Shown here piece by piece: positions 692 to 29,693 of a DNA stretch of 29,693 bases. The notes beneath the pieces were generated by a model, which saw only the letters and a list, made by a program, of their open reading frames with translations, had not been told where the DNA came from and searched no databases. Source of the stretch: a bacterium (GTDB taxonomy: Bacteria > J088 > JAWLBW01); NCBI GenBank assembly GCA_041690355.1, contig JAWLHK010000005.1, forward strand, positions 248,001-277,693. The letters run 5' to 3'. Position 1 is the first letter of the stretch. Every line of letters starts with the position of its first letter. The translations under genes and the position numbers were made by a program.

Positions 692-701
692 GCCGCACGG
701 A

Positions 702-729
702 AGTTTCCAGTTTCCAGTTTCCAGTTTCA
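702..729. repeat. Heptamer tandem repeat (AGTTTCC)x3 + AGTTTCA
   Basis: Read directly in the fabG-thiolase intergenic region. Confidence 0.9.
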
Positions 730-756
730 GTGCCGAAAGGACCAAGGGAAAGAATC

Positions 757-3681: not shown

Positions 3682-3760
3682 ATTGTAGCTCCCCGGCAGA
3701 ATGCCCCGCACCCCGGTCGGCCGGGCTGATTTGCGGTCGGCGCGGCCGGCGCGGTATGCT
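3682..3760. promoter_or_regulatory. Putative divergent sigma70-type promoters
   Basis: Minus-strand -10 TACAAT (3682-3687) lies 8 nt before the DUF2288 ATG. Plus-strand TTGCGG(3731)-N18-TATGCT(3755-3760) lies 7 nt before ATG 3768. Confidence 0.45.
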
Positions 3761-3767
3761 TGCTCCC

Positions 3768-5342: not shown

Positions 5343-5701
5343 AAGGCGAACGCTTTTCGCGGCTCGAGACCCAGACGCCGGCGCCCATCGAGCCGGCGCA
5401 CACGCCTTTCCGGCGCAAACTCGAGACGACGCCGACGCAACTCCCTTCTGCCGACCAGGCCGTGGGCTCGACGCGCGATGCCAGGATTCTCGCCGGCATC
5501 GATGAAGCAGAGCGGCAACAAAAGATGGAGGGAGCGCGGCGGCGGATCAGCGAGGCCCGCTCGCGCCTCGTCGTACCCGGCCTGCTGCTGGCTTTCGCGC
5601 TGCTGCCGCTGATTACGGGAACGGCGCTGGGTCGGCGCGGCCTTCTTCTTTCCCTTCTCGCAGGTCTGGCCGTCTACTGGATCCGCCGGAGAACACCATG
5701 A
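5339..5701 (+). CDS. Small membrane protein with two C-terminal TM helices, function unknown
   Basis: ATGA overlaps with both neighbours. Begins ERFSRLE, then a Pro/Thr linker, a helical segment, two hydrophobic helices and a basic tail. Confidence 0.75.
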   Translation: MKGERFSRLETQTPAPIEPAHTPFRRKLETTPTQLPSADQAVGSTRDARILAGIDEAERQQKMEGARRRISEARSRLVVPGLLLAFALLPLITGTALGRRGLLLSLLAGLAVYWIRRRTP

Positions 5702-6063
5702 GCAACAGCGTGGGCGTCGACGTCATCATCACCTCTCTGGACACCCTTCGTGAGGCGCTGTCCGACCTGAAGCTGGCCCGCGAAGACCTGCGGGAGCTCG
5801 AGTGCCAAGGGCAGAAGACGCGCGTCGATTTCACCATCCGCACCGAGCAGGGCGAGCGCATCGGCGTGCGCCAGAACCGCGAGGGGGTCGAGTTCGTTCT
5901 CCAGAAAGATACGCAGACGGCCCGCGAGGCGCTTAACCGCATCCGGCAGTCCTATGCGCGGCTCAAGGTACTCGATGAAGTAAAACGCATGGGTTACCAG
6001 CAGGTTAAAGAAGAAAAACTTTCCGACGGCTCGGTCCGTCTCGTGGTGCAGCGATGGCGGTAA
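5698..6063 (+). CDS. DUF1257 (Ycf35-like) protein
   Basis: ITSLDTLREALSDL, IGVRQ, LNRIRQSYA..KV, and GYQQVKEEKLSDGSVRLVVQRW; located next to the Ycf46 ATPase. Confidence 0.85.
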   Translation: MSNSVGVDVIITSLDTLREALSDLKLAREDLRELECQGQKTRVDFTIRTEQGERIGVRQNREGVEFVLQKDTQTAREALNRIRQSYARLKVLDEVKRMGYQQVKEEKLSDGSVRLVVQRWR

Positions 6064-8583: not shown

Positions 8584-9531
8584 ATGCAGAAATCCGCACC
8601 TCCCGCCGATGCGACGTTGGAGCAGCAGCTTCTCGAAGCCGTGCAGAGCGATATCGAGAGCGTGCGTGCGGCCGCTGAACACCTGATCGCCGCCGGCGGA
8701 AAACGCGCTCGGCCCCGCTTCGCCTTCCTGATCGGCGAGCTGCTGGGGGTCGACCCCGCCGTGGCCGCCGCCGTCGGTGCGGCGGCCGAGCTGGTGCACA
8801 CCGCCACCCTGCTCCATGACGACGTCCTCGACGGCAGCGATCGCCGCCGCGGGCGACCGGCCGTGCACGCGACGTTCGGTATCCGCAACGCCATTCTGAC
8901 GGGCGATTTCCTGCTCGCCCGCGCCATCGAGCACCTGACGGCGCGCGGACTTTTTCAGGCCACGCATGAGCTGACGCGCGCCGTGCGCGAACTGGTCGAG
9001 GCCGAGCTGCTCCAGCAGGAGCTGGCGTGGAACGCTGCCATCACGCAGGCGCAGGCGCGTCGCGTCGCCGAGGGAAAAACCGGCGCCCTGTTCGCGTGGT
9101 GCGCGCGCGGCCTCGCGGTCGAAGGGAAGCTCGATGCCGCCGGGATTGCATCGGCCGACGCGCTCGGCAGAGACGTGGGATTCGCCTTTCAGATTGCCGA
9201 CGACCTGCTCGACATTCACGCCGGAGGCGGCGACAAGCCGACCCGCGCCGATCTGCGCGCCGGACACGTAACCTTTCCGGTACGGCTGGCCTGCGATCGG
9301 GATGCGGAGCTGGAGGCCGCCATCCGCACGGCCTTCGCCTCACGCCGGGAGGCTGACTTCGAAGCCGCCTGCGCGGCCGTCGAACGCTCGCCCGCCGTCG
9401 CGCTGGCCAGAACCGAACTGGAGCAGGCGCGGAAACGGTTTTCGGATGCAGTCCGGGCGGCGGGCGCCAGCTCGGAGCTTGCCGGCCGCATGGAAGGGTT
9501 CTTCGACGCCGAGATCAGCCGCCAGCGCTGA
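8584..9531 (+). CDS. Polyprenyl diphosphate synthase (trans-prenyltransferase)
   Basis: GGKRARP, first aspartate-rich motif LLHDDVLD..RRRG, GDFLL, KTGALF, and second motif FQIADDLLD. Confidence 0.92.
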   Translation: MQKSAPPADATLEQQLLEAVQSDIESVRAAAEHLIAAGGKRARPRFAFLIGELLGVDPAVAAAVGAAAELVHTATLLHDDVLDGSDRRRGRPAVHATFGIRNAILTGDFLLARAIEHLTARGLFQATHELTRAVRELVEAELLQQELAWNAAITQAQARRVAEGKTGALFAWCARGLAVEGKLDAAGIASADALGRDVGFAFQIADDLLDIHAGGGDKPTRADLRAGHVTFPVRLACDRDAELEAAIRTAFASRREADFEAACAAVERSPAVALARTELEQARKRFSDAVRAAGASSELAGRMEGFFDAEISRQR

Positions 9532-9975
9532 TCAGCGGACGCAACGCACGAGCGCCGCTTCGGTCTTCGGGTTGGTGTATACGTACCCGCTGCTGAACAG
9601 GATGTACCAGGCAAAGTTCGGGCTGCCGTGGCGGGTCGTCGACGACCAGTAGCCCACCACGTTCGTCCCCGGAAAAGCCGCCTCGTCAATGGCCGGCGAC
9701 TGCCGATCGTCGGCCACGAGGGAGCGCAGCTCCTTGATCCCGGGCAGGCGCCAGTCGGTGCGCCCACCGAGCGTGAGGCCTTCGCAATAGGCGAGCGCAT
9801 CGCGCCAGCGACGCGAGACGTTGTCGTCTTCGCGCTGCCAATGCAGACCCGTCGCGGAATCGAGCACCGTGCCGTCGCCCTGATCGGTCAGCGTCGACGA
9901 GGCCGCCGCGGGCCGGGCCAGGACGGCCGCCGTCAGCAAGGTCAGGAACAGGCAGAAGCGGAGTCGGATGCGCAT
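9532..9975 (-). CDS. Secreted DUF1566 (Lcl C-terminal domain) protein
   Basis: Signal peptide; GDGTVLDSATGLHWQ, W.DA..YC, DWRLPGIKEL, YWSSTT, AW...F..G, and terminal VRCVR. Confidence 0.9.
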   Translation of the reverse strand: MRIRLRFCLFLTLLTAAVLARPAAASSTLTDQGDGTVLDSATGLHWQREDDNVSRRWRDALAYCEGLTLGGRTDWRLPGIKELRSLVADDRQSPAIDEAAFPGTNVVGYWSSTTRHGSPNFAWYILFSSGYVYTNPKTEAALVRCVR

Positions 9976-9978
9976 GCT

Positions 9979-11088
9979 TTACCGTACGCAGCGCACGTAA
10001 GCGCTGTCCCCTTCGGCCTTCTTCAGCGGGCCGACGTATCCATAGCTGAACAGGACCACCCAGGCCGACTCGGCGTCTCCCGCGTGGCTCGTGGCGGTCC
10101 AGTAATAGGCCGATTCCGTTCCGGGAAAGACACTCAGGTCGATGCTCGGGCCCGCGCGGCCGTAATCGAGAATCGACTGCAGCTCGCGGCTCGTCGGCAG
10201 CCGCCAGCCGCCGCCGGCGAGCGGCAGCCCGCTGCAGTAGAGCACGGCGTCGCCCCAGGTGCGCGCCGTGTCGTCGTCTTCGCGCTGCCAGACCAAGCCG
10301 GTGATCGCGTCGATCGCCGTGCCGTCGCCGGCGTCTGTGAAGCTCATCGGATAGGCGGCGTGCTGTGCGTCCTGGCCCGCAAAGGGTTCCCCTTCGGCTG
10401 GACAGGCGATCACGGCCGCGTTTCCATAGCACGTCTGCTGTCCGGAATCGGGCACCGGCCAGGATGGACTGCCTCCCGGACCGCCGGCCGAAAGTATCGT
10501 CCAGGTCCAGAAGGCCGGAGTCGCATCGACGTTTCCGGCGGCGTCGATGGCGCGAACCTCGAACGTGTTCTCTCCGCTGCTCAGCCTGTCGAGGGTGCCG
10601 GGCGAGTAGCAGCCGAACCAGAAGCCCGCGTTCAGCCGGCATTCGAACGTGCAGGCCGTCTCGTTGCACGAAAAGGTAAACGTGGCCGACGTCAGGTCGA
10701 TCGGCGATGGCGGCCCGTCGGCGATCACGGTTTCGGGCGGGGTAAGGTCGTCTTCGGGCTCGGGAACCGTGCCGCACGCGCCGAGGCAGACACTCGCGCA
10801 CGCCGCGTCTCCTTCGCAGACGAGACCGCACTCGCGTACGCAGGCGGTAACCGGATCGGTCTCGCAGACCGCGCACTCCTCACAGACTTCGCACTGCACG
10901 GGAGGCGGCGGTTTCGTATCCGTGTCCTTCTTCGCGGGGGGCGGTTCGTCGGACGTGCAGGCAGCCAAAAGGAGGACCGCGAGCAACGGCGCCGCGCAGC
11001 GCACCGCCCATGCACCGGCCCGTTCACGCAACCGCCGGAAGAATTCCCGAGAACCCGCAGGCATGCGCATCAACGATACCACAGACAC
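9979..11088 (-). CDS. Lipoprotein with Cys-rich region, Ig-like domain and DUF1566 domain
   Basis: Lipobox LLAA-C; Cys-rich segment; PPETVI..ATFTF..FECRL..TFEVRAIDAAGNVDATPA Ig-like domain; PDSGQQTCY; DUF1566 ending VRCVR. Start may be 11070 or 11064. Confidence 0.88.
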   Translation of the reverse strand: MSVVSLMRMPAGSREFFRRLRERAGAWAVRCAAPLLAVLLLAACTSDEPPPAKKDTDTKPPPPVQCEVCEECAVCETDPVTACVRECGLVCEGDAACASVCLGACGTVPEPEDDLTPPETVIADGPPSPIDLTSATFTFSCNETACTFECRLNAGFWFGCYSPGTLDRLSSGENTFEVRAIDAAGNVDATPAFWTWTILSAGGPGGSPSWPVPDSGQQTCYGNAAVIACPAEGEPFAGQDAQHAAYPMSFTDAGDGTAIDAITGLVWQREDDDTARTWGDAVLYCSGLPLAGGGWRLPTSRELQSILDYGRAGPSIDLSVFPGTESAYYWTATSHAGDAESAWVVLFSYGYVGPLKKAEGDSAYVRCVR

Positions 11089-11109
11089 ACCCCTTCGGCC
11101 CGTACCGGC

Positions 11110-13863
11110 TCATCCCGCATGCAGCGCCCCGATGAGAAACAGAAAGAACAGCGAGAGCGTTACCAGCGCGGCGCGGAACCGAGAAGCCGACGGCGGACCC
11201 GCCATCAGGGCGGCGACCAGGGCGCCCGCCGCAACGCCCGATGGAGAAGCGATCCACGTGATGCGCCCCTCGACCGCGAGCAGCAGCGGTGCCGCCGCCA
11301 GCGCCGCCGCCGTCGTCACCAGGATGCCCGCGTGAAGCTTCTGCAGCGGCCAGCCCCGCCGCGCAGCGAGCGTATACGGCGTCTGCACGCCGGCGTCGCG
11401 ATCCGCCGGCCAGTCCTTGTAATCCTTGAGCACGGCCACGAGCGAGAAGCCGCCGAAGGCGAGAAACATGGCCACCAGGGTGGGCGCCTCGAACGGGCCC
11501 GTGAAGGCGGGGTCGGCGAGCGCGGGCGAATGGGTCGTCCACCAGCGCGGCGCACCGTAGGCCAGCTGTTCATGCGCGGCGACGACGCCGAACCCGAAAG
11601 CGCAGAACCCCCAGATCCCCTCGATCTTCAGATTGGAGGGAAAGTAGCGCTTCGCCCGGTAGAAGGGGAAGTTGTAGAGCATGAACGTCGCGAAGGCGAT
11701 CAGGGCGAGAAAGGTGTTCCCGCTGTGCGCCGCGGCGAGAATGAGCAGGCCCAGCACGGCGGTCAGCGTGAGAAAGCGTACGTCATCGGCATCCAGGTAC
11801 CGGCGCCGGCCCTGGAGATCGTCTTCGGCACGATCGAAGAAATCGTTCTGCCCGAGCGCCACCCAGCCCGCGAGAAACATGAGAAAGGCATAGACCGCCG
11901 TCGTCGCCGAAACCGAACCAGCATAAGCCGAGCCGAGAAAGCAGAAGAGCAGAAACGGGAGCGCGTGCGGGATGCGGCCGGCCAGTCCGGCGAGCAGGCG
12001 CGGACGGACGGCCAGATACAGCGCCATGGCGAGCACGACCCGCATCAGATTCTCGGTCGTGATCCGGTGCCCCGGAGGCCACCCGGCGGCTTCGACGGCG
12101 AGCGCCGCAGCGGTGCCGGGGAGGGCGAGAACGGCCACGCCCCCGAGCCACCCCGCGCCCAACGTTGCGAGCCCCCGCAGAGCCCCCGCGCGCAGGCCTA
12201 CCCAGATCGCGCAGGACAGTGCGGCGACCCACCACACGAGCCCCCACCCTTCCATCCCCACCGGCGTCCACGGGACGGCGTCCGACCTGGCGGTCAGCAC
12301 GGCAATGGCGGGCGGAAAAAGGCCGAGGCCGATCCAGGGGAGCGCGCCGGCCAGGGCGCGCGGAGCCGAAAAGCGTCCGAAAACCCGCGCCACGGATGCG
12401 AACCAGAACAGGCCCAGCCAGAGCGTCGCGGCGGCCGACAGCCATGCGGCAAGCATCTGCTCGGGCGGTTCGCCGCCGGCCATCCAGGCCGCGAGCAGGC
12501 CGCCGCCGGCGACCACGAGCGATCCGAGAAAGGCGTGCAGGACTGCGGGCCTCCCTTCTCGCGGCGGAGAGATGCGCTCCCTGCGCGCGGCGGGGGGAAG
12601 CAGACGGGGAACGATGGCCGAGGCTGCGGCGAAGATGACCGCAAGGGCGGCGAGTGTACCGGAGTCCCACGGATACAGCGCGCCGGGCTCTGCCGGCTGC
12701 GGAAGAAAGGCGATCCACCAGCGCGGCGCCCCGTAGGCGGCCTGCTCCGCCGCGGCCGTGATGCCGAGGAGAAAGGCACACACGGCGAGGAGCCCGCCGA
12801 AAAGAAGGGCGCGGGAAAACTTCTGCACCCCCAACCCGAACCCCGCCAGAAAAAGGAGACCGAGCGCAGCCAGCGCCAGCGGGATCAGGCCGAGCGCATT
12901 CGCGGCCGCGAGCGCCAGGAGCAGCATTCCCCCCATGACGGCGAGCATCTGTGCGTCTTCCCGCTCCATCTCGCCCCCGCCCCCCTCGGATCTCTGTGAC
13001 AGAACGGCGAGAGCGATCCCGACGACGATGACAAACAGCGCGGCATAGGCAAAGGCGCCGGGCCCAAGGCCACCGACCCAGAGCGAACCGGCGAGTACGA
13101 AGGCCCCCATGACCGCCAGATAGGCTGTGCGCCGGACGAACCACCGGCGCACCGCCGGCTGCAGGGCGACGAAAAGCACGAACGAGGCGGCAATCTGCAG
13201 CAGATTCACGAGCGCGATGTAGTGGGTCGGCTGCCAGCCCGCGAGCGACCCGAACAGCATGGCGAGACCCGCGGGAAGGCCGCCGATGACGATCACCCCG
13301 CCGTAGGAGAGCGACAGTGCCGCCAGGGTCCGGGGCATGCTGCGCGTCTTGTGCGCAACGTAGAGTGTCGTGAAGAAAATCACGGTCCACAGCACGATGG
13401 CTTCGCCGATCGGGATGTTCAGCTTCGGGTTGTAGAGATACCAGTTGAACTCCGAAGGGACCCCCCAGACGTAAGCGTACTGAAAGCCGGTGCCGCTGAA
13501 GAGCGTGTCGAGCAGCGGCGGGAAGATGCCGAGAAAGATACCCACCAGGATGACGTTCATCGAGGTGCGCCAGGGCTGCGGCACGAGCAGGCGCAGCACG
13601 GTCGTGAACACGAAAAAGGTGAACCAGTAGAACCCGGTCAGGGTCACCACGAAGGAGAGCGGAAACGGATCCGGCACGCCGCCGAGAATCCACTCGAGAA
13701 AGCGCCGCATCGATCCGACAAAGAGACAGAAGAAGAAGATCGCAAGCGGACTGAACGTCCGCTTCTCGAGCAGGGCCGAGACGTTGCGGAACCAGATCCA
13801 GGGATAGTTGCGCACGGCGCCACGCGACGTATCGGGGGGCCGCGAGGCCGTAAGACTGCTCAT
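11110..13863 (-). CDS. 917-aa polytopic membrane protein, internally duplicated, with a C-terminal UbiA-family prenyltransferase domain
   Basis: UbiA Asp-rich motifs QNDFFDRAEDD and LKDYKDWPADRDAGVQT, plus LYNFPFYRAKR. ATG at 13863 forms an ATGA overlap with the upstream stop. Confidence 0.82.
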   Translation of the reverse strand: MSSLTASRPPDTSRGAVRNYPWIWFRNVSALLEKRTFSPLAIFFFCLFVGSMRRFLEWILGGVPDPFPLSFVVTLTGFYWFTFFVFTTVLRLLVPQPWRTSMNVILVGIFLGIFPPLLDTLFSGTGFQYAYVWGVPSEFNWYLYNPKLNIPIGEAIVLWTVIFFTTLYVAHKTRSMPRTLAALSLSYGGVIVIGGLPAGLAMLFGSLAGWQPTHYIALVNLLQIAASFVLFVALQPAVRRWFVRRTAYLAVMGAFVLAGSLWVGGLGPGAFAYAALFVIVVGIALAVLSQRSEGGGGEMEREDAQMLAVMGGMLLLALAAANALGLIPLALAALGLLFLAGFGLGVQKFSRALLFGGLLAVCAFLLGITAAAEQAAYGAPRWWIAFLPQPAEPGALYPWDSGTLAALAVIFAAASAIVPRLLPPAARRERISPPREGRPAVLHAFLGSLVVAGGGLLAAWMAGGEPPEQMLAAWLSAAATLWLGLFWFASVARVFGRFSAPRALAGALPWIGLGLFPPAIAVLTARSDAVPWTPVGMEGWGLVWWVAALSCAIWVGLRAGALRGLATLGAGWLGGVAVLALPGTAAALAVEAAGWPPGHRITTENLMRVVLAMALYLAVRPRLLAGLAGRIPHALPFLLFCFLGSAYAGSVSATTAVYAFLMFLAGWVALGQNDFFDRAEDDLQGRRRYLDADDVRFLTLTAVLGLLILAAAHSGNTFLALIAFATFMLYNFPFYRAKRYFPSNLKIEGIWGFCAFGFGVVAAHEQLAYGAPRWWTTHSPALADPAFTGPFEAPTLVAMFLAFGGFSLVAVLKDYKDWPADRDAGVQTPYTLAARRGWPLQKLHAGILVTTAAALAAAPLLLAVEGRITWIASPSGVAAGALVAALMAGPPSASRFRAALVTLSLFFLFLIGALHAG

Positions 13864-16800
13864 GGCAGGTGAACCTCGGCGACGGCTGCAGCAAGGTGAT
13901 GGATGGCCACGAATACCGGCACTCCCTTCGCATCGCGAAGCGGCAGGCCGGCGTCGTCTTCGATCGCGAAGTACCCGTGCGGCAACAGCACCTCGAGCGC
14001 GCCCCCCGCGCCGCTCAGCCCTTCGATCGTGCGTCCGAAGAGGAGATCGCGAAAGCGCACCGGCGCCCCCGCGGCATAGGTCCCGTTCTTCAGGACCGTC
14101 GTGCGGAACCTGCGGATGCCGGCCGCGGGAAAGCCGGCCTCCGGTTCCGGACGACCGAGAAACCAGGCGGTTCCGTTCCACTCGCCCCACCACTCCCAGC
14201 AGAGAGAATCGATGCGGGCGCGCGCGCCGAACGGAATGCCCTGCACGCGCCCCCCGCAGCGGACGGACAGCGCGGCGTCGCGCAGCTCGGACGACCATGA
14301 GAAATCGTGTTCGCGACCGCCGGCGAAGCCGAGACCCGGGATAGCGCCCGGCAACGTGAATGCGCGCCTGTGTGTGCCGGACTCGATCATCCAGGCGCCT
14401 TCCGCACGCGGTCCCCACACGTAACCGGCGCCCGAGAACAACGCGGCCGGCGCCGGCCCGGTGACCGAAAGGGAACCCGCCACGGTCTGCAGGCCCAGCG
14501 GCCAGCGGGGCCCCTTCGCGGGAAGGGTGACGTGAACGGTTTTCTCATCGCCGGCCGTGAGGTGAAGCGACTGCGTGAGGCTCGCCCCCGAGGCCGGCGA
14601 GCGCACCATGAGCCGCCCGGCGCCGAGCGCCCGCAGCGAGAAGGTTCCGTCGGCGCAGGCCTGCGTGCGCGAGGTCCATGGCTCGGACTCCCACTCGATC
14701 AGGGCCCCGGAGATCGGCGTCCCGTCTTCATCCCGGACGGAACCGAGGGCGCGGCCTGTCATGGCGACAGAAAGCAGCGGAAGGGTCACTGCGGGTTCAT
14801 CCAGGTAGACCCACTCGCCGACATAGCCTTCGCGCAGGGCCCGGGCGCGCGAGCGCAGGCCGGGAGCGACCTGTACGGTGACCGACGGCGTTGCGGCGTC
14901 GTAGATCCGGAAATCGGCGAGGACGTCGGAGCGCACCTCGACCGCGGCGCTCAAGGCCTGGCCCTGATCATCCTGCACGGCGATCTGCACCGTCGCCGTC
15001 GACGCCGCGGGGGTGCCCGGGAGCGGCGCGGTCGCCGTCTCGCCCCCCGAACTCCAGAGGCGGATCTGCGCCGGCCACGAAGCCGCAAACGGGAGCGGCG
15101 CGACGCGCCGTCCGGTTCCGTCCCGATCCGCCAGCGTATCGAGAGGCGCGCGCACGAGAAGTTCCGCGGCGCCGTCGCGCACCTCCACGAACCCGGTGAC
15201 GGCGCCGCCGAACGGAATGCCCGCGACGGCGAGACTCGAGGAGTCTGCACTCGCGGTCAGGCCGCCGCCCCGGTGCAGGGCCACGGCGGCTGCGGAACAG
15301 CCGACGAGGGCCCGGGGTTCATCCGCGGACGCGACTCCGTTACCGTCCTCATCCCAGAACCAGCGGCATGCGTCTGCCGCCTCGGCCGGATAGGTGACCG
15401 AAACCGGAGACGCGGCCGAAAGGTCGATGCCGCCCAGGCTCGTGCGCTCGAGCGGAAGCCCCGTTGGAGTCGTCGCGCGAAACACGCGCAGGATACCCCC
15501 GGCCCCGCAGTCGCCACAGGCGACCTCGCTGGCCGCCGTCGTCACGGCCGGCATCCCGGGAACCGCTTCGAGCGCGGCCGTCACGGGAACGGCACGGCGC
15601 AGAAATGCGCCGCCGAAGTCCTCGACGGCGGGGCGATAGATCGGTTCAGCATCGCCCCACACCCCGTCGCCGTTGACGTCTTCGACGAAGAACAGGCGGG
15701 GGACGTCGAACCAGGGACGGCTCCAAACCGGAACGGTAACCGGGTGCGTCGCGACCGGCGCGGCCTGCCAGACGGGTATCGTTGCCGACGAGGCGTAGAG
15801 GAGCCAGCGGTGCGCCGCGGCCGGCCGCGCCGGCAGCGTCAACGCGATTCCGGCCCTGTAAATGCCGACGGTGCGCCAGGCCGAGGCGCCGGCGGGCCGA
15901 TAAAGAAACTCGTTCCAGCCTGCCGCGAGGGGAACCGCGCCGGCCGCGAGCAGCGTGAAATCGAGTGCGCGGATCTCTTCGGGCGGGCCCTCGCCGGCCT
16001 GCGCCAGCCATGCGCCCAAGTCGAAGGGGGCACCGGTGACAGCCGTGATCGGCAGAACGGAGAGCGATGCGGGCGGGACCGCGGCAGCCGTGGAGGAGAC
16101 CGCCGCAAGATGCCGGACATTACCGGCGCGATCGGTCACCCGCGCCCGCGCCGTGAAGGCGCCGCCCCCCGTCTGCCAGGCAGTCGAGAAGCGAAACCCG
16201 CCGGAGACCGCCTGCATGGGGACGCAATGGGAAAAGGCGGCGTCGCAGAGTTCGGCGGCGGCGAGGCCCGCACCGGTGTCAGAGGCGTCGATGCGGAAAT
16301 GGGTCGGCGGAGACCAGGGCGGGTCAAAGTTCCACACCGCGACAGGAGGCGTGGCGTCGACGTGAACGTCGACGGTGTTGCCCACGATGTCGTCTGCGCC
16401 CGGGGTCGCGACCCGGCACTCCACAGTCCAGGCCTTTTCAAGCGTCAGCGGCGGGAGGGTGAGCGTCGTGGTTCCCCGCGGATACGCCGCCGACACCAGC
16501 GAAACGCTTCGCGTGCCGCCGGCCCGCAGCTCGAGCGCCGACAAGGCGGCCGGCAGCGAGAACGAAACCTCCAGCGGTATCGGCTCGGCGGCGCCGTAGT
16601 GCGTGCGGGCAGGCGGCTGGATGACGCAGAACCCCTCGGGGTCGCGCATCGCCAGTTGATAACCGAAGCTGTACGGACCCCAGACACGGCCGCCGGCGTC
16701 CCGGGTGAAGACGACAAGGCTCGCGCTGTCGACGAGCCGGATGGCGACCGGATTGCCCTCCCAGGCTTCGACCTCGGGATCCGGGGCCCGGTTCAGGGCG

Positions 16801-17036
16801 AAGAGCAGTTCGACCTCGGGGTCGGCCGCCGCGAGGGTGACGTCAAGCGCGTAAGCGCCGTACGCACCCGGCGGCGGCTCCACCGAAAGAAGCGGCTCCA
16901 TCGGCCCCTCGTCGGGCGGTCCGGTGCGCGGCGGCTCGGGATCGCCGGAACAGGATGCCGTCAGCAGCAGCAGGAGCGCGACCCCCGGCCATCGGATGCG
17001 CCCTGCGGCAGGGAAACCGGATCTGCGTATCCCCAT
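13860..17036 (-). CDS. 1058-aa multidomain beta-sandwich lipoprotein
   Basis: Lipobox LTAS-C; PPPGAY (chitobiase/FN3-associated-like start); VDATPP..RARVTDRAGN Ig-like domain; DVNGDG and DEDGNG loops; GSVRDEDGTPISGA..ADGTFSL carboxypeptidase-regulatory-like domain. Confidence 0.8.
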   Translation of the reverse strand: MGIRRSGFPAAGRIRWPGVALLLLLTASCSGDPEPPRTGPPDEGPMEPLLSVEPPPGAYGAYALDVTLAAADPEVELLFALNRAPDPEVEAWEGNPVAIRLVDSASLVVFTRDAGGRVWGPYSFGYQLAMRDPEGFCVIQPPARTHYGAAEPIPLEVSFSLPAALSALELRAGGTRSVSLVSAAYPRGTTTLTLPPLTLEKAWTVECRVATPGADDIVGNTVDVHVDATPPVAVWNFDPPWSPPTHFRIDASDTGAGLAAAELCDAAFSHCVPMQAVSGGFRFSTAWQTGGGAFTARARVTDRAGNVRHLAAVSSTAAAVPPASLSVLPITAVTGAPFDLGAWLAQAGEGPPEEIRALDFTLLAAGAVPLAAGWNEFLYRPAGASAWRTVGIYRAGIALTLPARPAAAHRWLLYASSATIPVWQAAPVATHPVTVPVWSRPWFDVPRLFFVEDVNGDGVWGDAEPIYRPAVEDFGGAFLRRAVPVTAALEAVPGMPAVTTAASEVACGDCGAGGILRVFRATTPTGLPLERTSLGGIDLSAASPVSVTYPAEAADACRWFWDEDGNGVASADEPRALVGCSAAAVALHRGGGLTASADSSSLAVAGIPFGGAVTGFVEVRDGAAELLVRAPLDTLADRDGTGRRVAPLPFAASWPAQIRLWSSGGETATAPLPGTPAASTATVQIAVQDDQGQALSAAVEVRSDVLADFRIYDAATPSVTVQVAPGLRSRARALREGYVGEWVYLDEPAVTLPLLSVAMTGRALGSVRDEDGTPISGALIEWESEPWTSRTQACADGTFSLRALGAGRLMVRSPASGASLTQSLHLTAGDEKTVHVTLPAKGPRWPLGLQTVAGSLSVTGPAPAALFSGAGYVWGPRAEGAWMIESGTHRRAFTLPGAIPGLGFAGGREHDFSWSSELRDAALSVRCGGRVQGIPFGARARIDSLCWEWWGEWNGTAWFLGRPEPEAGFPAAGIRRFRTTVLKNGTYAAGAPVRFRDLLFGRTIEGLSGAGGALEVLLPHGYFAIEDDAGLPLRDAKGVPVFVAIHHLAAAVAEVHLP

Positions 17037-17045
17037 GCACGCCTT

Positions 17046-20000
17046 TCACAGCCGCCTGCGGCGCAGGGCTGCCCACACGAGGGTCGCGAGCAGCAGCCCG
17101 AGGGGAGCCTCGCTCGATCCGGCGCATCCGCCGCAGCCAGCGCCTTCGCCCACGACGATGTCGCGCGCCACGCTGGCCGTGTTCCCCGCGAGATCGGTGG
17201 CACGGACACGCAGCGTATGCCGCCCGGCAGCGACGCCGCGCAGCGGAACGGTCTCGGCCTCGAGCCGCGTCCACGGACCTCCATCGAAGGCGTACTCGGT
17301 GACCAGCTCGCCGGACGGCGTCTGCAGATCGGAACGCTCCACAGGAACCGAGCGCGTGTAGACTCCCTGCGGTGAGGGCGCAATCGCAATGCGCGGGGCC
17401 AACGTATCCACCGAGAACTCGATGCGTGTCGGGGCCACCTGTCCCGCAAATCCGCCCACGGTATCGGTCAGGGCCCGCACCTCGAGCGCATGCTCCCCTT
17501 CGGTCAGCGACTCGAGCGCGATATCGCCGCTGTTGCGCGGCGTGCGCCAGAACCCGCCGTCAAGGCGCCAGGTGAAGAGCGCGTCTACGTCGCCGCCCGG
17601 AGCTGCGGCCACGGCCGTGAAGCGCGGACTGCGTTCAGCGATCCAGCGCACGCCCTCCATGGCGGGAACCACCGCCTTCGGGGTGACGGCCGGCGGCGCG
17701 CCGAGTGCCGCCATGAGGGTCGGCAGGTCGAGCTGGCCAAACCGGCGGACGTAGACGCCGAGGTAATCGCCCCGCGATCCCTGCGTGCTCACACCGATAC
17801 CGTCATCATTCGGACCGTCGGGGCCGATGTAGAGAAAGTCGACGTCGAAGAAGCGGGCGGGCGTGCCCGTACCCGTCCCCGTCGGCTGCGGCGGCGTGAA
17901 GAATTCAGTCGAGGCGCGCGTATCCATGTACAGCTTCACGGTCGCGTCGAGCAGCGTAACGACCGCCTGCGCAACGCCCAGCAGGTCGCACCCTTCGCCG
18001 CAGTTGGCCTCGAGCACCTCGAACTTGGCCGCGCCGGGATTGTTCGTCACGAAGTCATGGTTCGTGAAGCGGCCCGCCGCGAACCCGTCGATGATGTTGA
18101 CCGGCGGCTCGAACTGGCTGGCCAGCGCGTCGTTTCCGTAATCGAGATAGGCCTGCCAGTACCCTGAAACCGTACGCACCAGCGGGTCAATCGACGTGCA
18201 CTCGGGCCTGTCGTGCAGCGGATCGAGCTCGTGGCACTGCCGCATGGCGCGCAGATAAATGCCGACCACGGCGTTCCAGTTCATCTTGAGGACTTCGATC
18301 TCGACATTGGATTCGGGATCGACGACGGCGACGTTGAGCTGAAGGTCAGGGAGCGCAATGCCCATCGTGTAGGGCTCGTTGGTAATCGGCGCAGAACCCT
18401 GAATCCCCGGCGCATGCGTATGGGTCAGCGTCCCGATGCCCATGCGCGCCCGCGGGCTGCTCTGCGGCGCGATGCGCACCTTGACGGGAGCATGCGGAAA
18501 CTGCGTCTGAAGCTCTGGCAGAAAGGCAGCAAACGCATCCGTATTCAGGAACGAGGCCCAGGGGGTCTCTTCGCCGGTCTCTTCGTCGGTGGGCGCAAAT
18601 TCGATACAGGCCGCGCCGGAGCTGACCACGGCCTGCAGCAGCTGATTGATGGCGCGCTGGTGGATGTGTATGCTGGCATCGTAATCGATGTTGCCCGACT
18701 CTTTGACCCCGTAGTCGTTCTGATGCGCAGCCACGATGGATCGGCCGCCGACCGCCGTCCCGGCAATGTAGTCCCAGTAGCCGACGGTATCGCGCTGTCC
18801 GGCCGGGGGCTGGACCATTGATGACGCGCCGGCCGGCTTGGTGTCGCTCGGATCGAAGGCCAGCCAGGTGCTCATGGGGAACCGGGCCGCGAGCGCGTCG
18901 GCTTCTTCTTTCGCGCGCTGCGGGGTCATGCACCAGTCGGGCGAACGCTTGTACGGCGCGACCCAGTACGGCTCGATCACCCGGCGACCCGAGTAGGACA
19001 GGTTGGTCTTGGGGTCGATCCAGTTGCCCTCGAGCATGTGGTCTTCGTAATCGTACTGCTGATCTTCGTCTTCGACGTCGAGGAGCGGATTATCGCGCGA
19101 GCAGCGGCGGCTCACGATGGACCAGGCCTGCGATCCGTTGAGCGTCGTGGCGTAGGTGCGGTAGGCCAGGCCCGTGTCGAAGTCGAGCTGAATCTGCCGG
19201 GCGCCGGCATTGACGGCCTTGATGTAATAGACGTTGTTCGGGTTCGCGGCGAACGTGAACTGGTCTCCGACGCGGATATCGGTCATGGTGCCCTGCGAGA
19301 ACGAAGCGGGCAGCGTCAGCCATCCCGCCGAAATTCCCCAGTTGCCCGCGTTGAAATCGCCCGCGCGGCCGCTGTCGATGAGATAGTGCGCCGTGGAGAT
19401 GCGCGAGACGTTGTGGATCTTACTCCACCGCCAAGTCGAAAGATCAAAGAAGAAGGAACCGTTGTACGTCGCATTGATCCCGGGGCCCGTGAGCACGCCG
19501 GTTCCGCTCGTGTACGTATAGGTCGCCGTTCCGGTGCCCGACGCCTGCCACACCGGCGTGACCCCCGTGCCCGAGAGGGGCACCTGACAGCTGCCGGTAT
19601 CCGGATAGACCATCGTAGGGACGGCGAAAAAGGAATCGTCTTCGATGCCGTTGTCGGCGTTGGCGGGAACCTCGTCGACCCCCGGCTGGTCGACGATCAT
19701 GATGCCGTTGCCGTTCGGCGGACGAAACGCAATGGGGCGAAAGCCGAGAGCGCCGTTCAGGTTGATGATGTCGGAGCGCCCCGCAATCGCCGGCTGGATG
19801 TCGACCGGCCAGATCTTACGTGTGGCATCCAGCGGGTCGTTGATACCGTCTGCGCCGGCGCCGGTCAGAAACAGACCGACGTCGACGAGCGACGTTCCGA
19901 AATTCCACGGATCGCCGAGCATCGTGTTCAGGTTCGGCAACCCCGTGTTGATTTCTTCGACCGTGTCGTTGATCAGCTTGGCAAACTCATCCTGAAACAC

Positions 20001-21920
20001 GTCGGCCACCGCGCCGGAGATCTGCTCCACGAGCAGCCCCCCTTCGGCCGTGCCCGAACCGAGCCGGAAAACGCACATGCCGTAGACACTGTGGTAGCAG
20101 GTGCTTCCGGCGGCAGACAAGTCCTGGAAAACGGCGCGAAAACGGTTGACGCCGGCATAGGTGTTGATGGCCGTGGTCGTCAGGTTCAAGCCGATGCGGA
20201 ACCGATCGGGACGCAGCAGGCCGTCATCGGCCCCGGTCCACGGGTCGTTGCAGTGCCCGCCCGCCACGCCGCACGAATAGTTGTCGTAGGACAGGATCTT
20301 CGCCGACCCGGCAAGCTGCACCGAATCGATCATGATCGCGCCGGTCGCCCATTTGCGCTTGACCTGCTGCCCCGGGCGGCTGCCGCAGGACGGGCTGAGA
20401 AAGCTCACGCCGATGGTGCACTCGGTGGCGAAATCGAAAAAGATGGCCATTTCGAGGCGCCACTCGTCGCCGACCAGGTTGAGGTCGATCTCCTCGTTCA
20501 CCGGGTCGAGGGCCAGCGTGTTGACGCGCAGGGCGCTCCAGCCGGTCGTGCCGCAGGTCTTGGTCGCATCGTTGCCGGGATAAATGATCCTGGCGTCGTC
20601 GCTCGAGTCCCATTCCTTGCAGGCGATCCACTTTTCCTTCGTGGAATCCCAATACGACTTGGGACGCAGGCACTGCGGCACGCGGTCGTAGAAGTAGATC
20701 GGCTCGCCGGCGCCGTCGAGCGTGCCGGTATAGACGGGGCCGTAGCCGCAGCCCGCGACCGCCTTCGGGCCGTGCGCCGCCGTCGAAAGGGCGTCCCGGT
20801 CGATGGAGTGAATCTGCATCTCGCGGACGTCCGGATAAAAGGCGATGTCGTCGCCGGGGCGGAAGTAGGAACCGAAGAGCTCGCTGTAGACGCGGGTCTC
20901 ATCGTGGTCGGAGGCGTCGGCCGGAAAGTTTCCCGCTTTCCACGTTAATCCTCCGCCGTCGGCGCCGGAGGTACGATACCCATGCGGATTATTGAAGGAA
21001 CCGGTATAGACGCCGTAGCGCTTGAGCGGCTGATAGCCGAAGTAATCACCGACGGCGCCGTAGTTGAGCGTGAGCGGTCGCATCCAGGCCGGATCGTCTG
21101 CGCCGAGGTTGGTCGAGCGCATCCCCCCGGCGTTCTCGACGAAGCCGTTGGGGAAGATGTAGACGCCGGCGTTCATGTAGATCTCGCCGGCCGGCGGCTC
21201 GACCAGCGGATCCATGTCGCAGCGCAGGCCGAGTTCGTTCACCTGGTGATGCGTGCAGACGTCTGCCCAGCACCAACCGGCGCGGTTCCACATGCACGCC
21301 GACTGCTGATTGAAACATTTACCCTCATCGGCGACGAAGAAGCCGTGCTCGCGCTGAAAGCTCTGCAGATAGGAAGGCAGCCCGCGCTGATTGCAGAGAA
21401 TTCCCTGCGCGATGTGCGCGCCGCAGGCGTTGACGTTGACCCGATCGTCGTTGTTGCAAGGCGATCCTGCGTCGCCGGGACGGCGCACCTGCAGCCAGTG
21501 AAAGCGGCGCGGAGTCGTCTGGTCCATGGCGAGACAGCCGGTATCGTCGCCGGCGCAGTTGTCGGAGCGCCAGGCCCACATGAGCTCAACGGGGGTCGTG
21601 CGCACGCCGCCGGCATTCTTGGCGACCGGATCGTAGCCCGGATCGAGGATCGTGTTGAAGCCGCCGGGTTCGGTGTAGAAGTTGGAGTCGCGCGTGCTCT
21701 GCGGCTCGGTCCACGACCCGAGCATCTTGTTGACTTCGACTTTGGCGGCGTCGAAGAGGCGCCCCGAGACCCGGGCGCGCACCCCGTAGTTCGTGACGTG
21801 CGGATCGTCGATGGCCATGGCCTTCTGCGCAGGCCCGCTCTCCTCGGCGGCGGCGGGTGCGGCCGGCAGGAGCGCGGCGAGGATGGCGGCAAGGATGAAC
21901 AGACGTGCGTGTTCGTTCAT
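17046..21920 (-). CDS. 1624-aa secreted surface protein with putative BPI/LBP (TULIP)-like region, two Ig-like domains and MYXO-CTERM-like anchor
   Basis: Signal peptide ending PAAA-EE; IHQRAINQLL...AFAAFLPELQTQFPHAPVKVRI..SSP; FTWRLDGGFW..GEHALEVRA and GRHTLRVRATDLAGN; C-terminus GCGGCAGSSEAPLGLLLATLVWAALRRRRL. Confidence 0.82.
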   Translation of the reverse strand: MNEHARLFILAAILAALLPAAPAAAEESGPAQKAMAIDDPHVTNYGVRARVSGRLFDAAKVEVNKMLGSWTEPQSTRDSNFYTEPGGFNTILDPGYDPVAKNAGGVRTTPVELMWAWRSDNCAGDDTGCLAMDQTTPRRFHWLQVRRPGDAGSPCNNDDRVNVNACGAHIAQGILCNQRGLPSYLQSFQREHGFFVADEGKCFNQQSACMWNRAGWCWADVCTHHQVNELGLRCDMDPLVEPPAGEIYMNAGVYIFPNGFVENAGGMRSTNLGADDPAWMRPLTLNYGAVGDYFGYQPLKRYGVYTGSFNNPHGYRTSGADGGGLTWKAGNFPADASDHDETRVYSELFGSYFRPGDDIAFYPDVREMQIHSIDRDALSTAAHGPKAVAGCGYGPVYTGTLDGAGEPIYFYDRVPQCLRPKSYWDSTKEKWIACKEWDSSDDARIIYPGNDATKTCGTTGWSALRVNTLALDPVNEEIDLNLVGDEWRLEMAIFFDFATECTIGVSFLSPSCGSRPGQQVKRKWATGAIMIDSVQLAGSAKILSYDNYSCGVAGGHCNDPWTGADDGLLRPDRFRIGLNLTTTAINTYAGVNRFRAVFQDLSAAGSTCYHSVYGMCVFRLGSGTAEGGLLVEQISGAVADVFQDEFAKLINDTVEEINTGLPNLNTMLGDPWNFGTSLVDVGLFLTGAGADGINDPLDATRKIWPVDIQPAIAGRSDIINLNGALGFRPIAFRPPNGNGIMIVDQPGVDEVPANADNGIEDDSFFAVPTMVYPDTGSCQVPLSGTGVTPVWQASGTGTATYTYTSGTGVLTGPGINATYNGSFFFDLSTWRWSKIHNVSRISTAHYLIDSGRAGDFNAGNWGISAGWLTLPASFSQGTMTDIRVGDQFTFAANPNNVYYIKAVNAGARQIQLDFDTGLAYRTYATTLNGSQAWSIVSRRCSRDNPLLDVEDEDQQYDYEDHMLEGNWIDPKTNLSYSGRRVIEPYWVAPYKRSPDWCMTPQRAKEEADALAARFPMSTWLAFDPSDTKPAGASSMVQPPAGQRDTVGYWDYIAGTAVGGRSIVAAHQNDYGVKESGNIDYDASIHIHQRAINQLLQAVVSSGAACIEFAPTDEETGEETPWASFLNTDAFAAFLPELQTQFPHAPVKVRIAPQSSPRARMGIGTLTHTHAPGIQGSAPITNEPYTMGIALPDLQLNVAVVDPESNVEIEVLKMNWNAVVGIYLRAMRQCHELDPLHDRPECTSIDPLVRTVSGYWQAYLDYGNDALASQFEPPVNIIDGFAAGRFTNHDFVTNNPGAAKFEVLEANCGEGCDLLGVAQAVVTLLDATVKLYMDTRASTEFFTPPQPTGTGTGTPARFFDVDFLYIGPDGPNDDGIGVSTQGSRGDYLGVYVRRFGQLDLPTLMAALGAPPAVTPKAVVPAMEGVRWIAERSPRFTAVAAAPGGDVDALFTWRLDGGFWRTPRNSGDIALESLTEGEHALEVRALTDTVGGFAGQVAPTRIEFSVDTLAPRIAIAPSPQGVYTRSVPVERSDLQTPSGELVTEYAFDGGPWTRLEAETVPLRGVAAGRHTLRVRATDLAGNTASVARDIVVGEGAGCGGCAGSSEAPLGLLLATLVWAALRRRRL

Positions 21921-22984
21921 GGCAGAACCTCCCCGGCGGCAGCCGGCGGAAGAACAGACGCCTGCGTGAGCGGACTCGTCAGGCGGAAGTCGGTTTGGGG
22001 CAGCGGGTATCCGCCGGCCTGGAGAAGCGTGGCAATCACGTAAGCGCCGAGCGGGGCCTGGTTCTCGGCCTGCTGCTCGATCGGCGAGCCGCCCCAGGAC
22101 CCATCGGGTCGCTGCGCGCGGATGAAGTCGATGATGATTTTCGTCGGCACGGCCGAAAGCCGTTCGCTGGCCGCCAGCGCGAAGAGAACGTAAGCCGTCT
22201 GGTCAACGGGCCGGTCGCGCTTGCCGAGCCAGCGCACCAGGCGCGGCACCAGCGGCGCGGACTGCTCGCGAAAAACTCGTTCGCCGATGCAGCCGTGCAT
22301 GAGGAAGCCGGCATAGAGCCCGTACTGCACCCACTCGGTATCCGCCGGCCAGGCCAGCGTGTCCATGCGCCGCAGGAAACGCGCATTGTAGTCGGCCTCG
22401 GCGGGCAGGCAATGCCCGACGGCCGAAAGCGAGAAGAGCATGGCCAGCGCCTGATCGGAGGGCCGCGCCGGGAGTCCGGGCTGCATGCGCTCGCGGATCC
22501 AGGCCCAATCGATTCCGCTTTCCAGCGGCCGGATTTCCGCAATTCCCCCCGGCTTCTCGCGAACCAGGCTGGGCAGCAGCGTTCCGCTCGCGAGCACCTT
22601 GGCGGTGATTTCAGCGGCATTGGCGCGTACGCCGAAATCCTTTTCGAGATAATAGAGACCGGTGAGTCCGCCTTCGCGCCAGGAGGCGGCCGGCGCGCTC
22701 TGTACGCGTTCGAGCGCGAGAAGGAAGCGCCGGTTCAGCTCGTCGCGGAAGCCTTCGCCCGCCGCTTCGCCGGCCGCATCAGAGGTTTTCTCAGCGGGTG
22801 CCTTCCCGACGGCTGCCGGTTCAGGCGTGGCGTTCGACGTGCAGGCGATGGGCAGAATCAAAAGACACGCGAGCGCTTGGCACAAGGTGCGATACACGTG
22901 CCGCGTCACAAACGGTCTTCGAGTAGTCGGATCCGGTCTCATAGGTCTCCGGCGAACAGCCGCAGAATTTGTATCGACTTGCAC
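21917..22984 (-). CDS. Putative lipoprotein with a QW-like (prenyltransferase/terpene cyclase toroid) motif
   Basis: LACLLILPIA-C lipobox; predicted helical body; IRAQRPDGSWG. Stop overlaps the next ATG (ATGA). True start is probably downstream of 22984, e.g. 22942. Confidence 0.7.
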   Translation of the reverse strand: MQVDTNSAAVRRRPMRPDPTTRRPFVTRHVYRTLCQALACLLILPIACTSNATPEPAAVGKAPAEKTSDAAGEAAGEGFRDELNRRFLLALERVQSAPAASWREGGLTGLYYLEKDFGVRANAAEITAKVLASGTLLPSLVREKPGGIAEIRPLESGIDWAWIRERMQPGLPARPSDQALAMLFSLSAVGHCLPAEADYNARFLRRMDTLAWPADTEWVQYGLYAGFLMHGCIGERVFREQSAPLVPRLVRWLGKRDRPVDQTAYVLFALAASERLSAVPTKIIIDFIRAQRPDGSWGGSPIEQQAENQAPLGAYVIATLLQAGGYPLPQTDFRLTSPLTQASVLPPAAAGEVLP

Positions 22985-29227: not shown

Positions 29228-29693
29228 GAGCGGGGTGGAGCAGGCGAAGTATTGGTGACATCTGCCGAATTGTAAATGGCGGAACTCCAAAAACGGGCAT
29301 CAAGGAGTATTGGGACGGACCTCATGCATGGATAACGCCTGCGGAGATGGGTGGCCTGATTTCCCCCTATGTGTCTGAAACCCGGCGGACATTGACTAAC
29401 TTAGGCCTTGCTAAGTCCTCGGCATCTCTCTTGCCGCCAAATTCGATCATATTGTCGTCCCGCGCGCCAATTGGCCACCTGGTGATCAACGAAGTACCAA
29501 TGGCAACCAACCAGGGGTGCAAGGGATTGGTCCCAAACGACTCGGTAGATGTGAAGTTTCTCTTCTACTTTCTTTCATCTAGGGTTGAAGAACTCAATGA
29601 GCTCGGTGTTGGTGCGGTTTTCAAAGAACTTTCGGCATCGCGGCTTAGACAATTGCTTGTTCCCACCCCCCCCCTCCCCGAGCAGCGGCGGAT
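29224..29693 (+). CDS. hsdS: Type I R-M specificity subunit S, 3'-truncated by window edge (absent from the ORF track)
   Basis: GTG overlaps the hsdM stop (GTGA). Translates to MRAGWSRRSIGDICRIVNGGTPKT..EYWDG..WITPAEM..ILSSRAPIG..ATNQGCKGL..FKELS..VPTPPLPEQRR. Confidence 0.95.
   Translation, partial: MRAGWSRRSIGDICRIVNGGTPKTGIKEYWDGPHAWITPAEMGGLISPYVSETRRTLTNLGLAKSSASLLPPNSIILSSRAPIGHLVINEVPMATNQGCKGLVPNDSVDVKFLFYFLSSRVEELNELGVGAVFKELSASRLRQLLVPTPPLPEQRR

Follow-up and report, generated by a model that had tools for sequence, protein, structure and literature searches.

A family of UbiA-type membrane proteins with a conserved N-terminal domain, duplicated in a composite cell-surface gene block of a barely sampled bacterial phylum

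We analyzed a 29,693-nt stretch of bacterial DNA (hereafter the window, to which all positions refer unless another contig or locus is named), in which a block of six minus-strand genes occupies positions 9532-22984; these genes are numbered G1 to G6 in the order of the minus strand. The fourth gene, G4, belongs to an undescribed enzyme family in which a UbiA domain invariably follows a conserved N-terminal membrane domain (the N-domain). Judging from its sequence, G4 itself is a fused pseudo-dimer of two such units with complementary decay, the N-domain site being kept in the first unit (unit A) and the UbiA site in the second (unit B). The block as a whole looks composite, combining a lineage-restricted, multi-copy G1-G2-G3 cassette with a G4-centred module. 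As an explanation we tentatively favor, at somewhat less than an even chance, that G4 synthesizes a polyprenyl-linked lipid on the inner side of the membrane and that the N-domain handles this lipid on the outer side on behalf of envelope proteins.

G4 (11110..13863, minus strand) is a single-copy gene in the source genome and encodes an integral membrane protein of 917 aa when started at the ATG overlapping the G3 stop codon. Its two halves are homologous (residues 58-417 versus 460-809; 28% identity, E 1e-22 in a self-BLAST), and alignment with relatives, most of which are single units of ~500 aa, defines the repeat unit as an N-terminal domain of ~190 residues followed by a UbiA domain. The AlphaFold2 (AF2) model is all-helical, with a mean predicted local distance difference test score (pLDDT) of 87.7 and a predicted template modeling score of 0.90. 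The UbiA family PF01040 matches residues 638-898 at 37.0 bits (cut-off 34.2), and the search of the genome gave 37.5 bits. In a fold search of the model, residues 621-917 showed the nine-helix UbiA fold and matched the solved enzymes 4tq3 (AfUbiA, score 17.7), 4od4 (ApUbiA, 17.2), 6m31 (DGGGP synthase, 16.2) and 8djm (UBIAD1, 16.1), as well as the membrane phosphoribosyltransferase 8j8j (14.6).

A first-pass annotation, made from the sequence, had described G4 as a duplicated UbiA-like membrane protein; both the duplication and the fold stand, with the qualification that only the second copy keeps the Asp-rich motifs. The N-domain of unit A (residues 15-205; 13249..13821) retains R53, E57, P115-P116-x-x-D119, Y129, Y131 and G153-E154, and with them the RxxxE, PPxxD and GE motifs; it is followed by a degenerate UbiA-like half (residues about 236-430; 12574..13158), which aligns with the active half and is devoid of Asp-rich motifs. 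In unit B, a degenerate N-domain (residues about 440-595; 12079..12546), alignable with that of unit A, precedes the UbiA domain (residues 621-917; 11113..12003), which retains NDxxDxxxD (N673-D674-x-x-D677-x-x-x-D681) and KDxxDxxxD (K813-D814-x-x-D817-x-x-x-D821). The decay is shared among the five long forms of the G4 clade: N[DQ]xxDxxxD and [KR]DxxDxxxD are gone from unit A in all five, and the unit B N-domain has lost RxxxE in all five and PPxxD in three, G4 among them. No equivalog cut-off of a named UbiA subfamily (MenA, UbiA, MqnP, heme O, DGGGP, DPPR synthase or ChlG) was reached by G4; searches of NCBIfam returned no UbiA-type family at E<=0.01 for the whole protein or at E<=1 for residues 590-917, and the relatives of G4 yielded weak matches of at most 30 bits against cut-offs of at least 238. 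Across the gene (11001-14000) the AT skew rises up to +0.36, which fits an effect of a T-rich (Phe/Leu-rich) minus-strand membrane-protein gene and no separate feature.

The family extends well beyond this genome. When 1.84 billion representatives were searched with an N-domain profile, 344 clusters passed at E<=1e-3, and 135 at the stricter E<=1e-10. A further 147 representatives were listed; 115 of them measure 440-600 aa and carry the N-domain at the N terminus, and within these 115 PPxxD is present in 108, the second Asp motif in 108 and N[DQ]xxDxxxD in 81. In 116 aligned representatives, the R, E, Y, PP, D, YxY and GE positions of the N-domain are conserved at 90-100% and a W at 87%, on par with the catalytic residues of the UbiA domain. 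When 13 members were compared with Pfam at E<=10, matches to the N-domain were scattered, with no family matched by more than two members; the profile matched only EMC3 in the PDB (E 0.64), and all matches of whole G4 in the fold search were taken by the UbiA domain. Public records name members of the family only "UbiA family prenyltransferase" or "hypothetical protein". From the AF2 helices and from where Lys and Arg fall in the loops (the positive-inside rule), the N-domain would form six helices with its N terminus inside and its conserved polar cluster at the periplasmic face. The Asp motifs of solved UbiA enzymes face the cytoplasm.

To place the family in other genomes, we used a metagenome scan that returned 10 loci (9 distinct, two too short to judge) and a broad sample of 201 genomes, 10 of which encode the N-domain. 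In five metagenome loci, the G4 relative ends a same-strand run encoding ComEC, GspH-like and N_methyl minor pilins, PilX, a PilY1 of ~1100 aa and a secreted protein of 150 aa, and is followed by a convergent gene of 366 aa. The five pilus-linked members constitute one clade, with 53-87% mutual identity. Throughout this clade, the secreted protein of ~150 aa (L009 9469-9942; L010 1956-2390; L011 9470-9949; L014 7710-8159; L017 about 9490-9930) lies between PilY1 and the gene for the N-domain and UbiA; it has no Pfam match and carries the motif ...VVLVD...GKHY.TN..D..G...F....G.W.F.RGG.LPD...GAR.I.LLP. The convergent gene of ~366 aa also lacks a Pfam match, apart from a sub-threshold FlgT_N match of the L017 copy, and its kinship to G1 was rejected (hhalign probability 0.5%). 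In the literature collection searched, no paper joined UbiA with PilY1, or a UbiA prenyltransferase with type IV pili.

In another genome (G175), the G4 relative directly follows the gene of a 1684-aa BNR/Sortilin/Big_13 lipoprotein. Altogether, a large exported protein is encoded just upstream on the same strand in 8 of the 17 loci with usable flanks, namely the window, the related genome G004 described below, the five PilY1/minor-pilin loci and the locus with the 1684-aa lipoprotein; these eight represent only about three independent clades. Outside them, three members are fused at the C terminus to tetratricopeptide repeat (TPR) arrays: two in genome G088, one of which lies beside Wza, Wzz and Wzy_C genes and proteins with a type IX secretion system sorting tail, and one in genome G145. 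If the UbiA C terminus lies outside, as the nine-helix topology would suggest, these TPR tails should be periplasmic. A polyprenyl synthase gene adjoins the family member in 3 of the 17 loci (the window, G004 and L015, where it is divergent). Pilins, PilY1 and the cassette proteins would be the acceptors in a different explanation, which we regard as very unlikely: G4 would make or bind a polyprenyl-phosphate sugar, and the N-domain would be a small GT-C-type transferase glycosylating these proteins. Decaprenyl-phospho-arabinose in mycobacteria and pilin arabinosylation in Pseudomonas provide parallels for such a glycan route.

The six minus-strand genes of the window, their junctions of -4, 9, -4, 21 and 3 nt, and the sizes of the G2 and G3 products (1624 and 1058 aa), all given in the first-pass annotation, were reproduced from the open reading frame (ORF) coordinates, and the block is real, its genes being probably co-transcribed. 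Counts from a promoter and terminator scan lay at the level of chance, with 11 terminator-like sites found versus 10.3 expected. The source genome (4.64 Mb, 42 contigs; G000) belongs to a GTDB phylum of only 5 species genomes, and a G4 homolog is present in one of the other four, G004, its sole family-mate. There, the block including the synthase is syntenic with the window at 43-63% protein identity, in the order G1 to G6 followed by a convergent synthase, with two further G4 paralogs, of 528 and 420 aa, inserted between G3 and G4. Most of the tested flanking genes are absent from the G004 contig carrying the block, and the synteny is therefore taken as more than chance; a thiolase gene (window 664-2052) is present, ~5.8 kb from the G1 homolog.

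The first three genes also recur on their own. When the six proteins were searched by tblastn against the source genome, a second trio, G1'-G2'-G3', was located at G000:C5:115096-123565 (23-37% identity), where no second copy of G4, the Lcl_C domain or the synthase was found. Its neighbors are a convergent HTTM-domain gene, an FG-GAP/ASPIC protein and a CHASE2 cyclase. The HTTM (vitamin-K-carboxylase-like) membrane gene, at L026:7920-8930, faces this second cassette (L026 9000-17565) and comes after a 953-aa RnfD-like/FG-GAP/ASPIC protein; the adjacency is absent beside the G004 cassettes, and a relationship of the HTTM gene to the N-domain was rejected (hhalign probability 0.1%). G004 carries four trios, comprising the main copy, two in tandem on contig C3 and one on C92 with the order G2-G1-G3. 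Thus, one of the two trios in the source genome and three of the four in G004 have no adjoining UbiA, Lcl_C or synthase gene. G1, G2 and G4 are rare: a word-indexed search of 5.8 billion proteins (5.8e9) returned 4 members for G1, 3 for G2 and 11 for G4, and G1 was found in 2 of the 201 sampled genomes, both from the GTDB family of the source genome.

The block would accordingly be read as two modules, the first being one copy of a multi-copy cassette that encodes a toroid lipoprotein, a giant exported protein and a large lipoprotein, and the second consisting of G4, the lectin-like G5 and G6 and the abutting polyprenyl-diphosphate synthase. The first-pass annotation had proposed a single dedicated system and suggested homolog co-occurrence as a check on it. 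That check gave a divided answer: the whole block is syntenic in G004, and yet the trio recurs without the UbiA, Lcl_C or synthase genes, while distant G4 relatives lie in varied and quite different neighborhoods. Because the trio recurs alone, the synthase may be a housekeeping enzyme and the contexts of the G4 family differ, a dedicated system is unsupported.

The trans-polyprenyl diphosphate synthase gene (8584..9531) does abut the 3' end of the block as had been noted, and its orientation is here corrected: it is read from the plus strand and converges on G6. Its stop codon meets that of G6 without an intergenic base, in the palindrome TGATCA (9529-9534); therefore, the two transcripts must overlap or terminate within the opposite gene. 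The synthase matches PF00348 with 167.2 bits against a cut-off of 27, and its DDVLD and DDLLD motifs are evident on reading. Its best NCBIfam matches, each below cut-off, are to solanesyl-, hepta-, hexa- and octaprenyl-diphosphate synthases, and small residues precede the first DDxxD, which we take to be the pattern of long-chain enzymes; the product is probably of medium or long chain. The only other PF00348 gene of the genome, on contig C31, passes the farnesyl diphosphate (FPP) synthase model (330.7 bits versus 275). The genome has four UbiA-family genes: a heme O synthase, a decaprenyl-phosphate phosphoribosyltransferase homolog (G000:C7:50870-51841; 273 bits versus a cut-off of 234), an unassigned gene (G000:C27:48162-49262; without subfamily, with an NxxNxxxDxD-type first motif) and G4. 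None of these four, nor any other gene of the source genome, passes the MenA, UbiA or MqnP model.

In the explanation that we favor, the cytoplasm-facing UbiA site would use a long prenyl diphosphate, plausibly supplied by the adjoining synthase, to form a polyprenyl-linked lipid in the inner leaflet. At the outer face, this lipid would then be bound, flipped or passed on by the N-domain, in aid of exported surface proteins; these would be the cassette and the lectin-like proteins here and PilY1 with minor pilins, or other giant lipoproteins, elsewhere. The use of the neighboring synthase's product and any link to surface proteins are steps that we infer.

Several observations weigh against this explanation. 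The periplasmic placement of the N-domain cluster comes solely from the AF2 helices and the positive-inside rule, and the acceptor cannot be inferred because the UbiA domain of G4 fits no specific NCBIfam subfamily. Apart from the source genome, the whole block is present only in a relative at the family level, which is no independent witness. Among the more distant relatives, the neighborhood in L013 contains nothing suggestive, the G162 member is a split gene after flhB-flhA-flhF, and the contexts in G164, G028 and G099 are uninformative, the surrounding ORFs in G164 looking like spurious high-GC frames. Of the 6 cassette copies, 4 have no G4 beside them, so that G4 is dispensable in cis, and the window synthase may be the cell's sole, housekeeping long-chain enzyme, not dedicated to the block, because the other PF00348 gene passes the FPP-synthase model.

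These last two points also favor a reading that we consider doubtful, in which the genes are neighbors without a shared job: the cassette would have been inserted upstream of an unrelated lipid pair, and G4 with the synthase would make a housekeeping isoprenoid, G4 being, for example, the missing quinone prenyltransferase. The negative results with the MenA, UbiA and MqnP models and the synthase adjoining the family member in L015 agree with it. However, a combination of N-domain and UbiA that occurs in only 10 of the 201 sampled genomes has too patchy a distribution for a core quinone enzyme, and the UbiA gene on C27 could fill that role instead of G4. The conserved extra domain and the TPR fusions, which to our knowledge are not features of known quinone prenyltransferases, speak against it as well, as do the short distances that link G4 to G3 (-4 nt) and to G5 (21 nt).

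Of the cassette proteins, G1 (21917..22984, minus strand) is a predicted (alpha/alpha)6-toroid lipoprotein. The ATG at 22942 (341 aa) is the likelier start, having GGAG upstream and being the start in the public gene call. The first-pass annotation had called it a QW-motif lipoprotein; the lipobox (LPIAC, by reading) and one QxxDGxW motif in the alignment bear this out, and there is no Pfam match even at E<=1, with PF00432, PF13243 and PF13249 included. Neither G1 nor most of G2 matches anything in Pfam or NCBIfam, and G1, G2 and G3 found no PDB sequence at E<0.1. ESM Atlas holds only unnamed clusters for G2 and G1 (scores 0.85 and 0.92). The toroid fold, also proposed earlier, is probably right: the AF2 model, built from a 4-sequence alignment, has a mean pLDDT of 69.5 (core ~80), and its best VIA matches are (alpha/alpha)6 toroids with glycoside hydrolases on top (GH105 11.4, GH88 10.8), followed by drimenol synthase (10.5), MstE (9.7), squalene-hopene cyclase (9.3), a LanC-like domain (9.0) and thioester domains (about 7.6). 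Foldseek matches are weak (E >= 0.039). We consider a toroid with one QW-like motif plausible on this model, and since glycoside hydrolases head the list, the fold is uninformative with regard to isoprenoids. Searched against the PDB, the family profile gave as best match the QW region of squalene-hopene cyclase, weakly (E 0.2). By reading of the alignment, G1 has neither the DxDD motif of class II cyclases nor a DDxxD motif, and no zinc site of the protein prenyltransferase kind is apparent: with the paralog included, only C178 and C218 are invariant and H216 varies.

The G2 gene (17046..21920, minus strand) encodes an exported protein of 1624 aa with, in order, a signal peptide (by reading), a trio-specific Cys-rich region, a BPI-like segment, two Ig-like domains with weak Big_13/OmpL47 matches, and a C-terminal tail. 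Among the 201 genomes, relatives of residues 30-950 are confined to the GTDB family of the source genome, and the C-terminal Ig domains and tail have matches in 31. A predicted complex of G2 residues 30-760 with G1 residues 62-325 scored 0.00 and gave no verdict. A tubular lipid-binding (TULIP) fold had been proposed within the block; the PF02886 (LBP_BPI_CETP_C) match of G2, at residues 1125-1166, does not reach the cut-off of 23 bits (15.4 bits, E 0.013; 12.9 bits in the genome search), and the G004 ortholog scores 19.7 bits. However, residues 1077-1173 (18402..18692) are homologous to residues 473-570 of a paralog on contig C9, C9p (30% identity, E 3e-8), whose segment passes at 31-34 bits. 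The PF02886 region recurs in 4 proteins of the source genome and 6 of G004, above cut-off in C9p (33.8 bits) and a protein on G004:C138 (35.5 bits). BPI alone was matched by the G2 profile in the PDB at E<=10 (E 1.2), and the N-terminal BPI domain PF01273 was undetected in G2. A TULIP identity of the segment is thus hinted at by sequence.

These features of G1 and G2 bear on the integrated system close to that of the first-pass annotation, in which G4 would make a prenyl lipid, the G1 toroid modify it outside the cytoplasm, the G2 TULIP segment carry it and the lectin-like proteins display it. We judge such a system unlikely. The tight block is kept as a unit in G004, and four components (UbiA, the QW-like toroid, the BPI-like segment and the synthase) are of folds or families that deal with isoprenoids or lipids; against this, the toroid-TULIP-lipoprotein trio recurs four times without an adjoining prenyl enzyme, G1 lacks the DxDD and DDxxD motifs and any Pfam prenyltransferase or cyclase match and resembles glycoside hydrolases first, and the TULIP call is sub-threshold.

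The G2 tail (17052..17144) reads ...GCGGC...LGLLLATLVWAALRRRRL and has a three-part layout of a Cys motif, a transmembrane helix and an Arg-rich extreme C terminus (RRRRL). The earlier label MYXO-CTERM holds for this layout and not for the score, because TIGR03901 gives 16.9 bits (E 0.057) against a cut-off of 20. C1599 is invariant in all five family members. Seven other proteins of the source genome exceed the cut-off of TIGR03901, and the genome also carries a myxosortase core gene outside the window at G000:C12:105311-105616 (NF040914, 124.1 bits versus a cut-off of 100); the G2 tail would be of the Cys/helix/Arg kind that myxosortase cuts. The source organism probably lies outside the Myxococcota, because its GTDB phylum consists of five species genomes, too few for that group. 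The myxosortase model is passed in 22 of the 201 genomes, and myxosortase sorting seems to be wider than Myxococcota.

Such tails are central to a highly improbable alternative, in which G4 would put a prenyl-type lipid on the invariant Cys of G2-like tails before cleavage by myxosortase. G2 and its paralogs do carry these tails in a genome with a myxosortase core gene. Myxosortase occurs in 3 of 8 N-domain-positive genomes outside the family versus 17 of the 191 remaining genomes (Fisher test, one-sided, p 0.035, with kinship between genomes ignored), whereas 17 of the 22 myxosortase genomes lack the N-domain. Moreover, four PilY1 proteins and the 1684-aa lipoprotein beside family members elsewhere have no such tail, and we know of no UbiA-family enzyme that acts on protein thiols. 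In the part of PMC11980579 available to us, the enzyme that lipidates MYXO-CTERM cysteines is treated as an open question and is still sought, and myxosortase is placed in the CAAX prenyl-protease family; the same part favors Lgt and describes cleavage in E. coli, which has no enzyme of the G4 kind. A bolder version, to which we likewise give very little credence, is a two-faced transferase that loads polyprenyl at the cytoplasmic face and hands it to exported proteins at the periplasmic face. If true, it would be the first extracytoplasmic protein prenyl/lipid transferase in bacteria, and the family would be a candidate for lipidating the invariant MYXO-CTERM Cys before cleavage, with G2 and its paralogs as substrates here and other giant surface proteins elsewhere.

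The remaining proteins of the block are exported. G3 (13860..17036, minus strand) is, as annotated earlier, a lipoprotein of 1058 aa with the lipobox LTASC (by reading); its residues 765-838 (14523-14744) match CarboxypepD_reg (PF13620, 37.5 bits versus a cut-off of 32.3), and its paralog in the second trio (G000:C5:115096-118020) is 32% identical. G5 (9979..11088) and G6 (9532..9975), both on the minus strand, had been reported as DUF1566 proteins and match PF07603 (Lcl_C/DUF1566) over profile positions 1-117 of 117, with a cut-off of 34.9 bits. G5 is a 369-aa lipoprotein (lipobox LLAAC, by reading) with the Lcl_C domain at residues 256-369 (9982-10323; E 3.5e-29, 101.9 bits), preceded by an Ig-like domain (residues 105-198) that recurs in other surface proteins. 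Ahead of both lies a short, very Cys-rich stretch, CEVCEECAVCE...CVRECGLVCEGDAACASVCLGAC, at residues about 66-104 (10777-10890). G6 is a secreted protein of 147 aa with a signal peptide (by reading) and a PF07603 match of 122.6 bits (E 1.3e-35). By tblastn, the Lcl_C domain of the source genome is found in G5 and G6 only.

On the left flank of the window (3756-6063), an AAA ATPase gene precedes a pair of small ORFs, of which one is DUF1257, and the right flank (27776-29691) carries the type I restriction-modification gene HsdM and the start of HsdS. The genes dapD and dapE and a GH1 glycosidase gene lie between these flanking genes and the block.

UbiA enzymes are known for their roles in the synthesis of quinones, hemes, chlorophylls, archaeal lipids and cell-wall carriers. 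The few hundred UbiA clusters described here bear a second domain that is conserved as strongly as the catalytic one and is probably outward-facing; the TPR arms and the PilY1 or giant-protein neighbors of some members point to an unstudied step joining isoprenoid lipids with the cell surface. The G4 pseudo-dimer, with one live site per half, offers a hypothesis for how the single-unit enzymes pair. The new content of the locus itself is a multi-copy cassette of BPI-like surface proteins with myxosortase-type tails, together with a myxosortase-type sorting system, in a nearly unsampled phylum. Should the family lipidate proteins, it would bear on who modifies the MYXO-CTERM cysteines; should it not, it is still a new enzyme family.

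Compared with known systems, the family of G4 shares its catalytic fold with the UbiA superfamily (4tq3, 4od4, 6m31/7bpu and 8djm) and adds to it the conserved N-terminal membrane domain of ~190 residues. G4 further differs from the solved enzymes in being a tandem duplicate with one dead UbiA copy and in reaching no NCBIfam subfamily cut-off. The predicted toroid of G1 would be of the (alpha/alpha)6 type seen in GH105 and GH88 hydrolases, class II terpene cyclases (MstE and squalene-hopene cyclase), transcobalamin and thioester domains. Like TipA/TipB of Bdellovibrio, as presented in the available part of bioRxiv 10.1101/2025.09.09.675085, G2 is exported, has a BPI/LBP-type lipid-binding signal and adjoins partner genes. 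In contrast to what that part describes, the G2 signal is a sub-threshold match of ~100 residues within 1624 aa, without a detected N-terminal BPI domain, and the partners are a toroid and a large lipoprotein instead of a small beta-sandwich. With MYXO-CTERM proteins such as TraA of Myxococcus xanthus (PMC11980579, in the part available), G2 shares the Cys motif, hydrophobic helix and Arg cluster, a likeness seen at the level of sequence; it differs in that its own tail falls under the cut-off and its host belongs to a five-genome phylum. Finally, G5 and G6 resemble the Lcl/DUF1566 adhesins (Legionella Lcl, in the available part of PMC11162425, and Leptospira Lsa25) in being exported and in covering PF07603 end to end, and unlike Legionella Lcl as depicted there, they have no collagen-like stalk; both are small, free-standing proteins or lipoproteins whose genes come after that of a membrane prenyltransferase.

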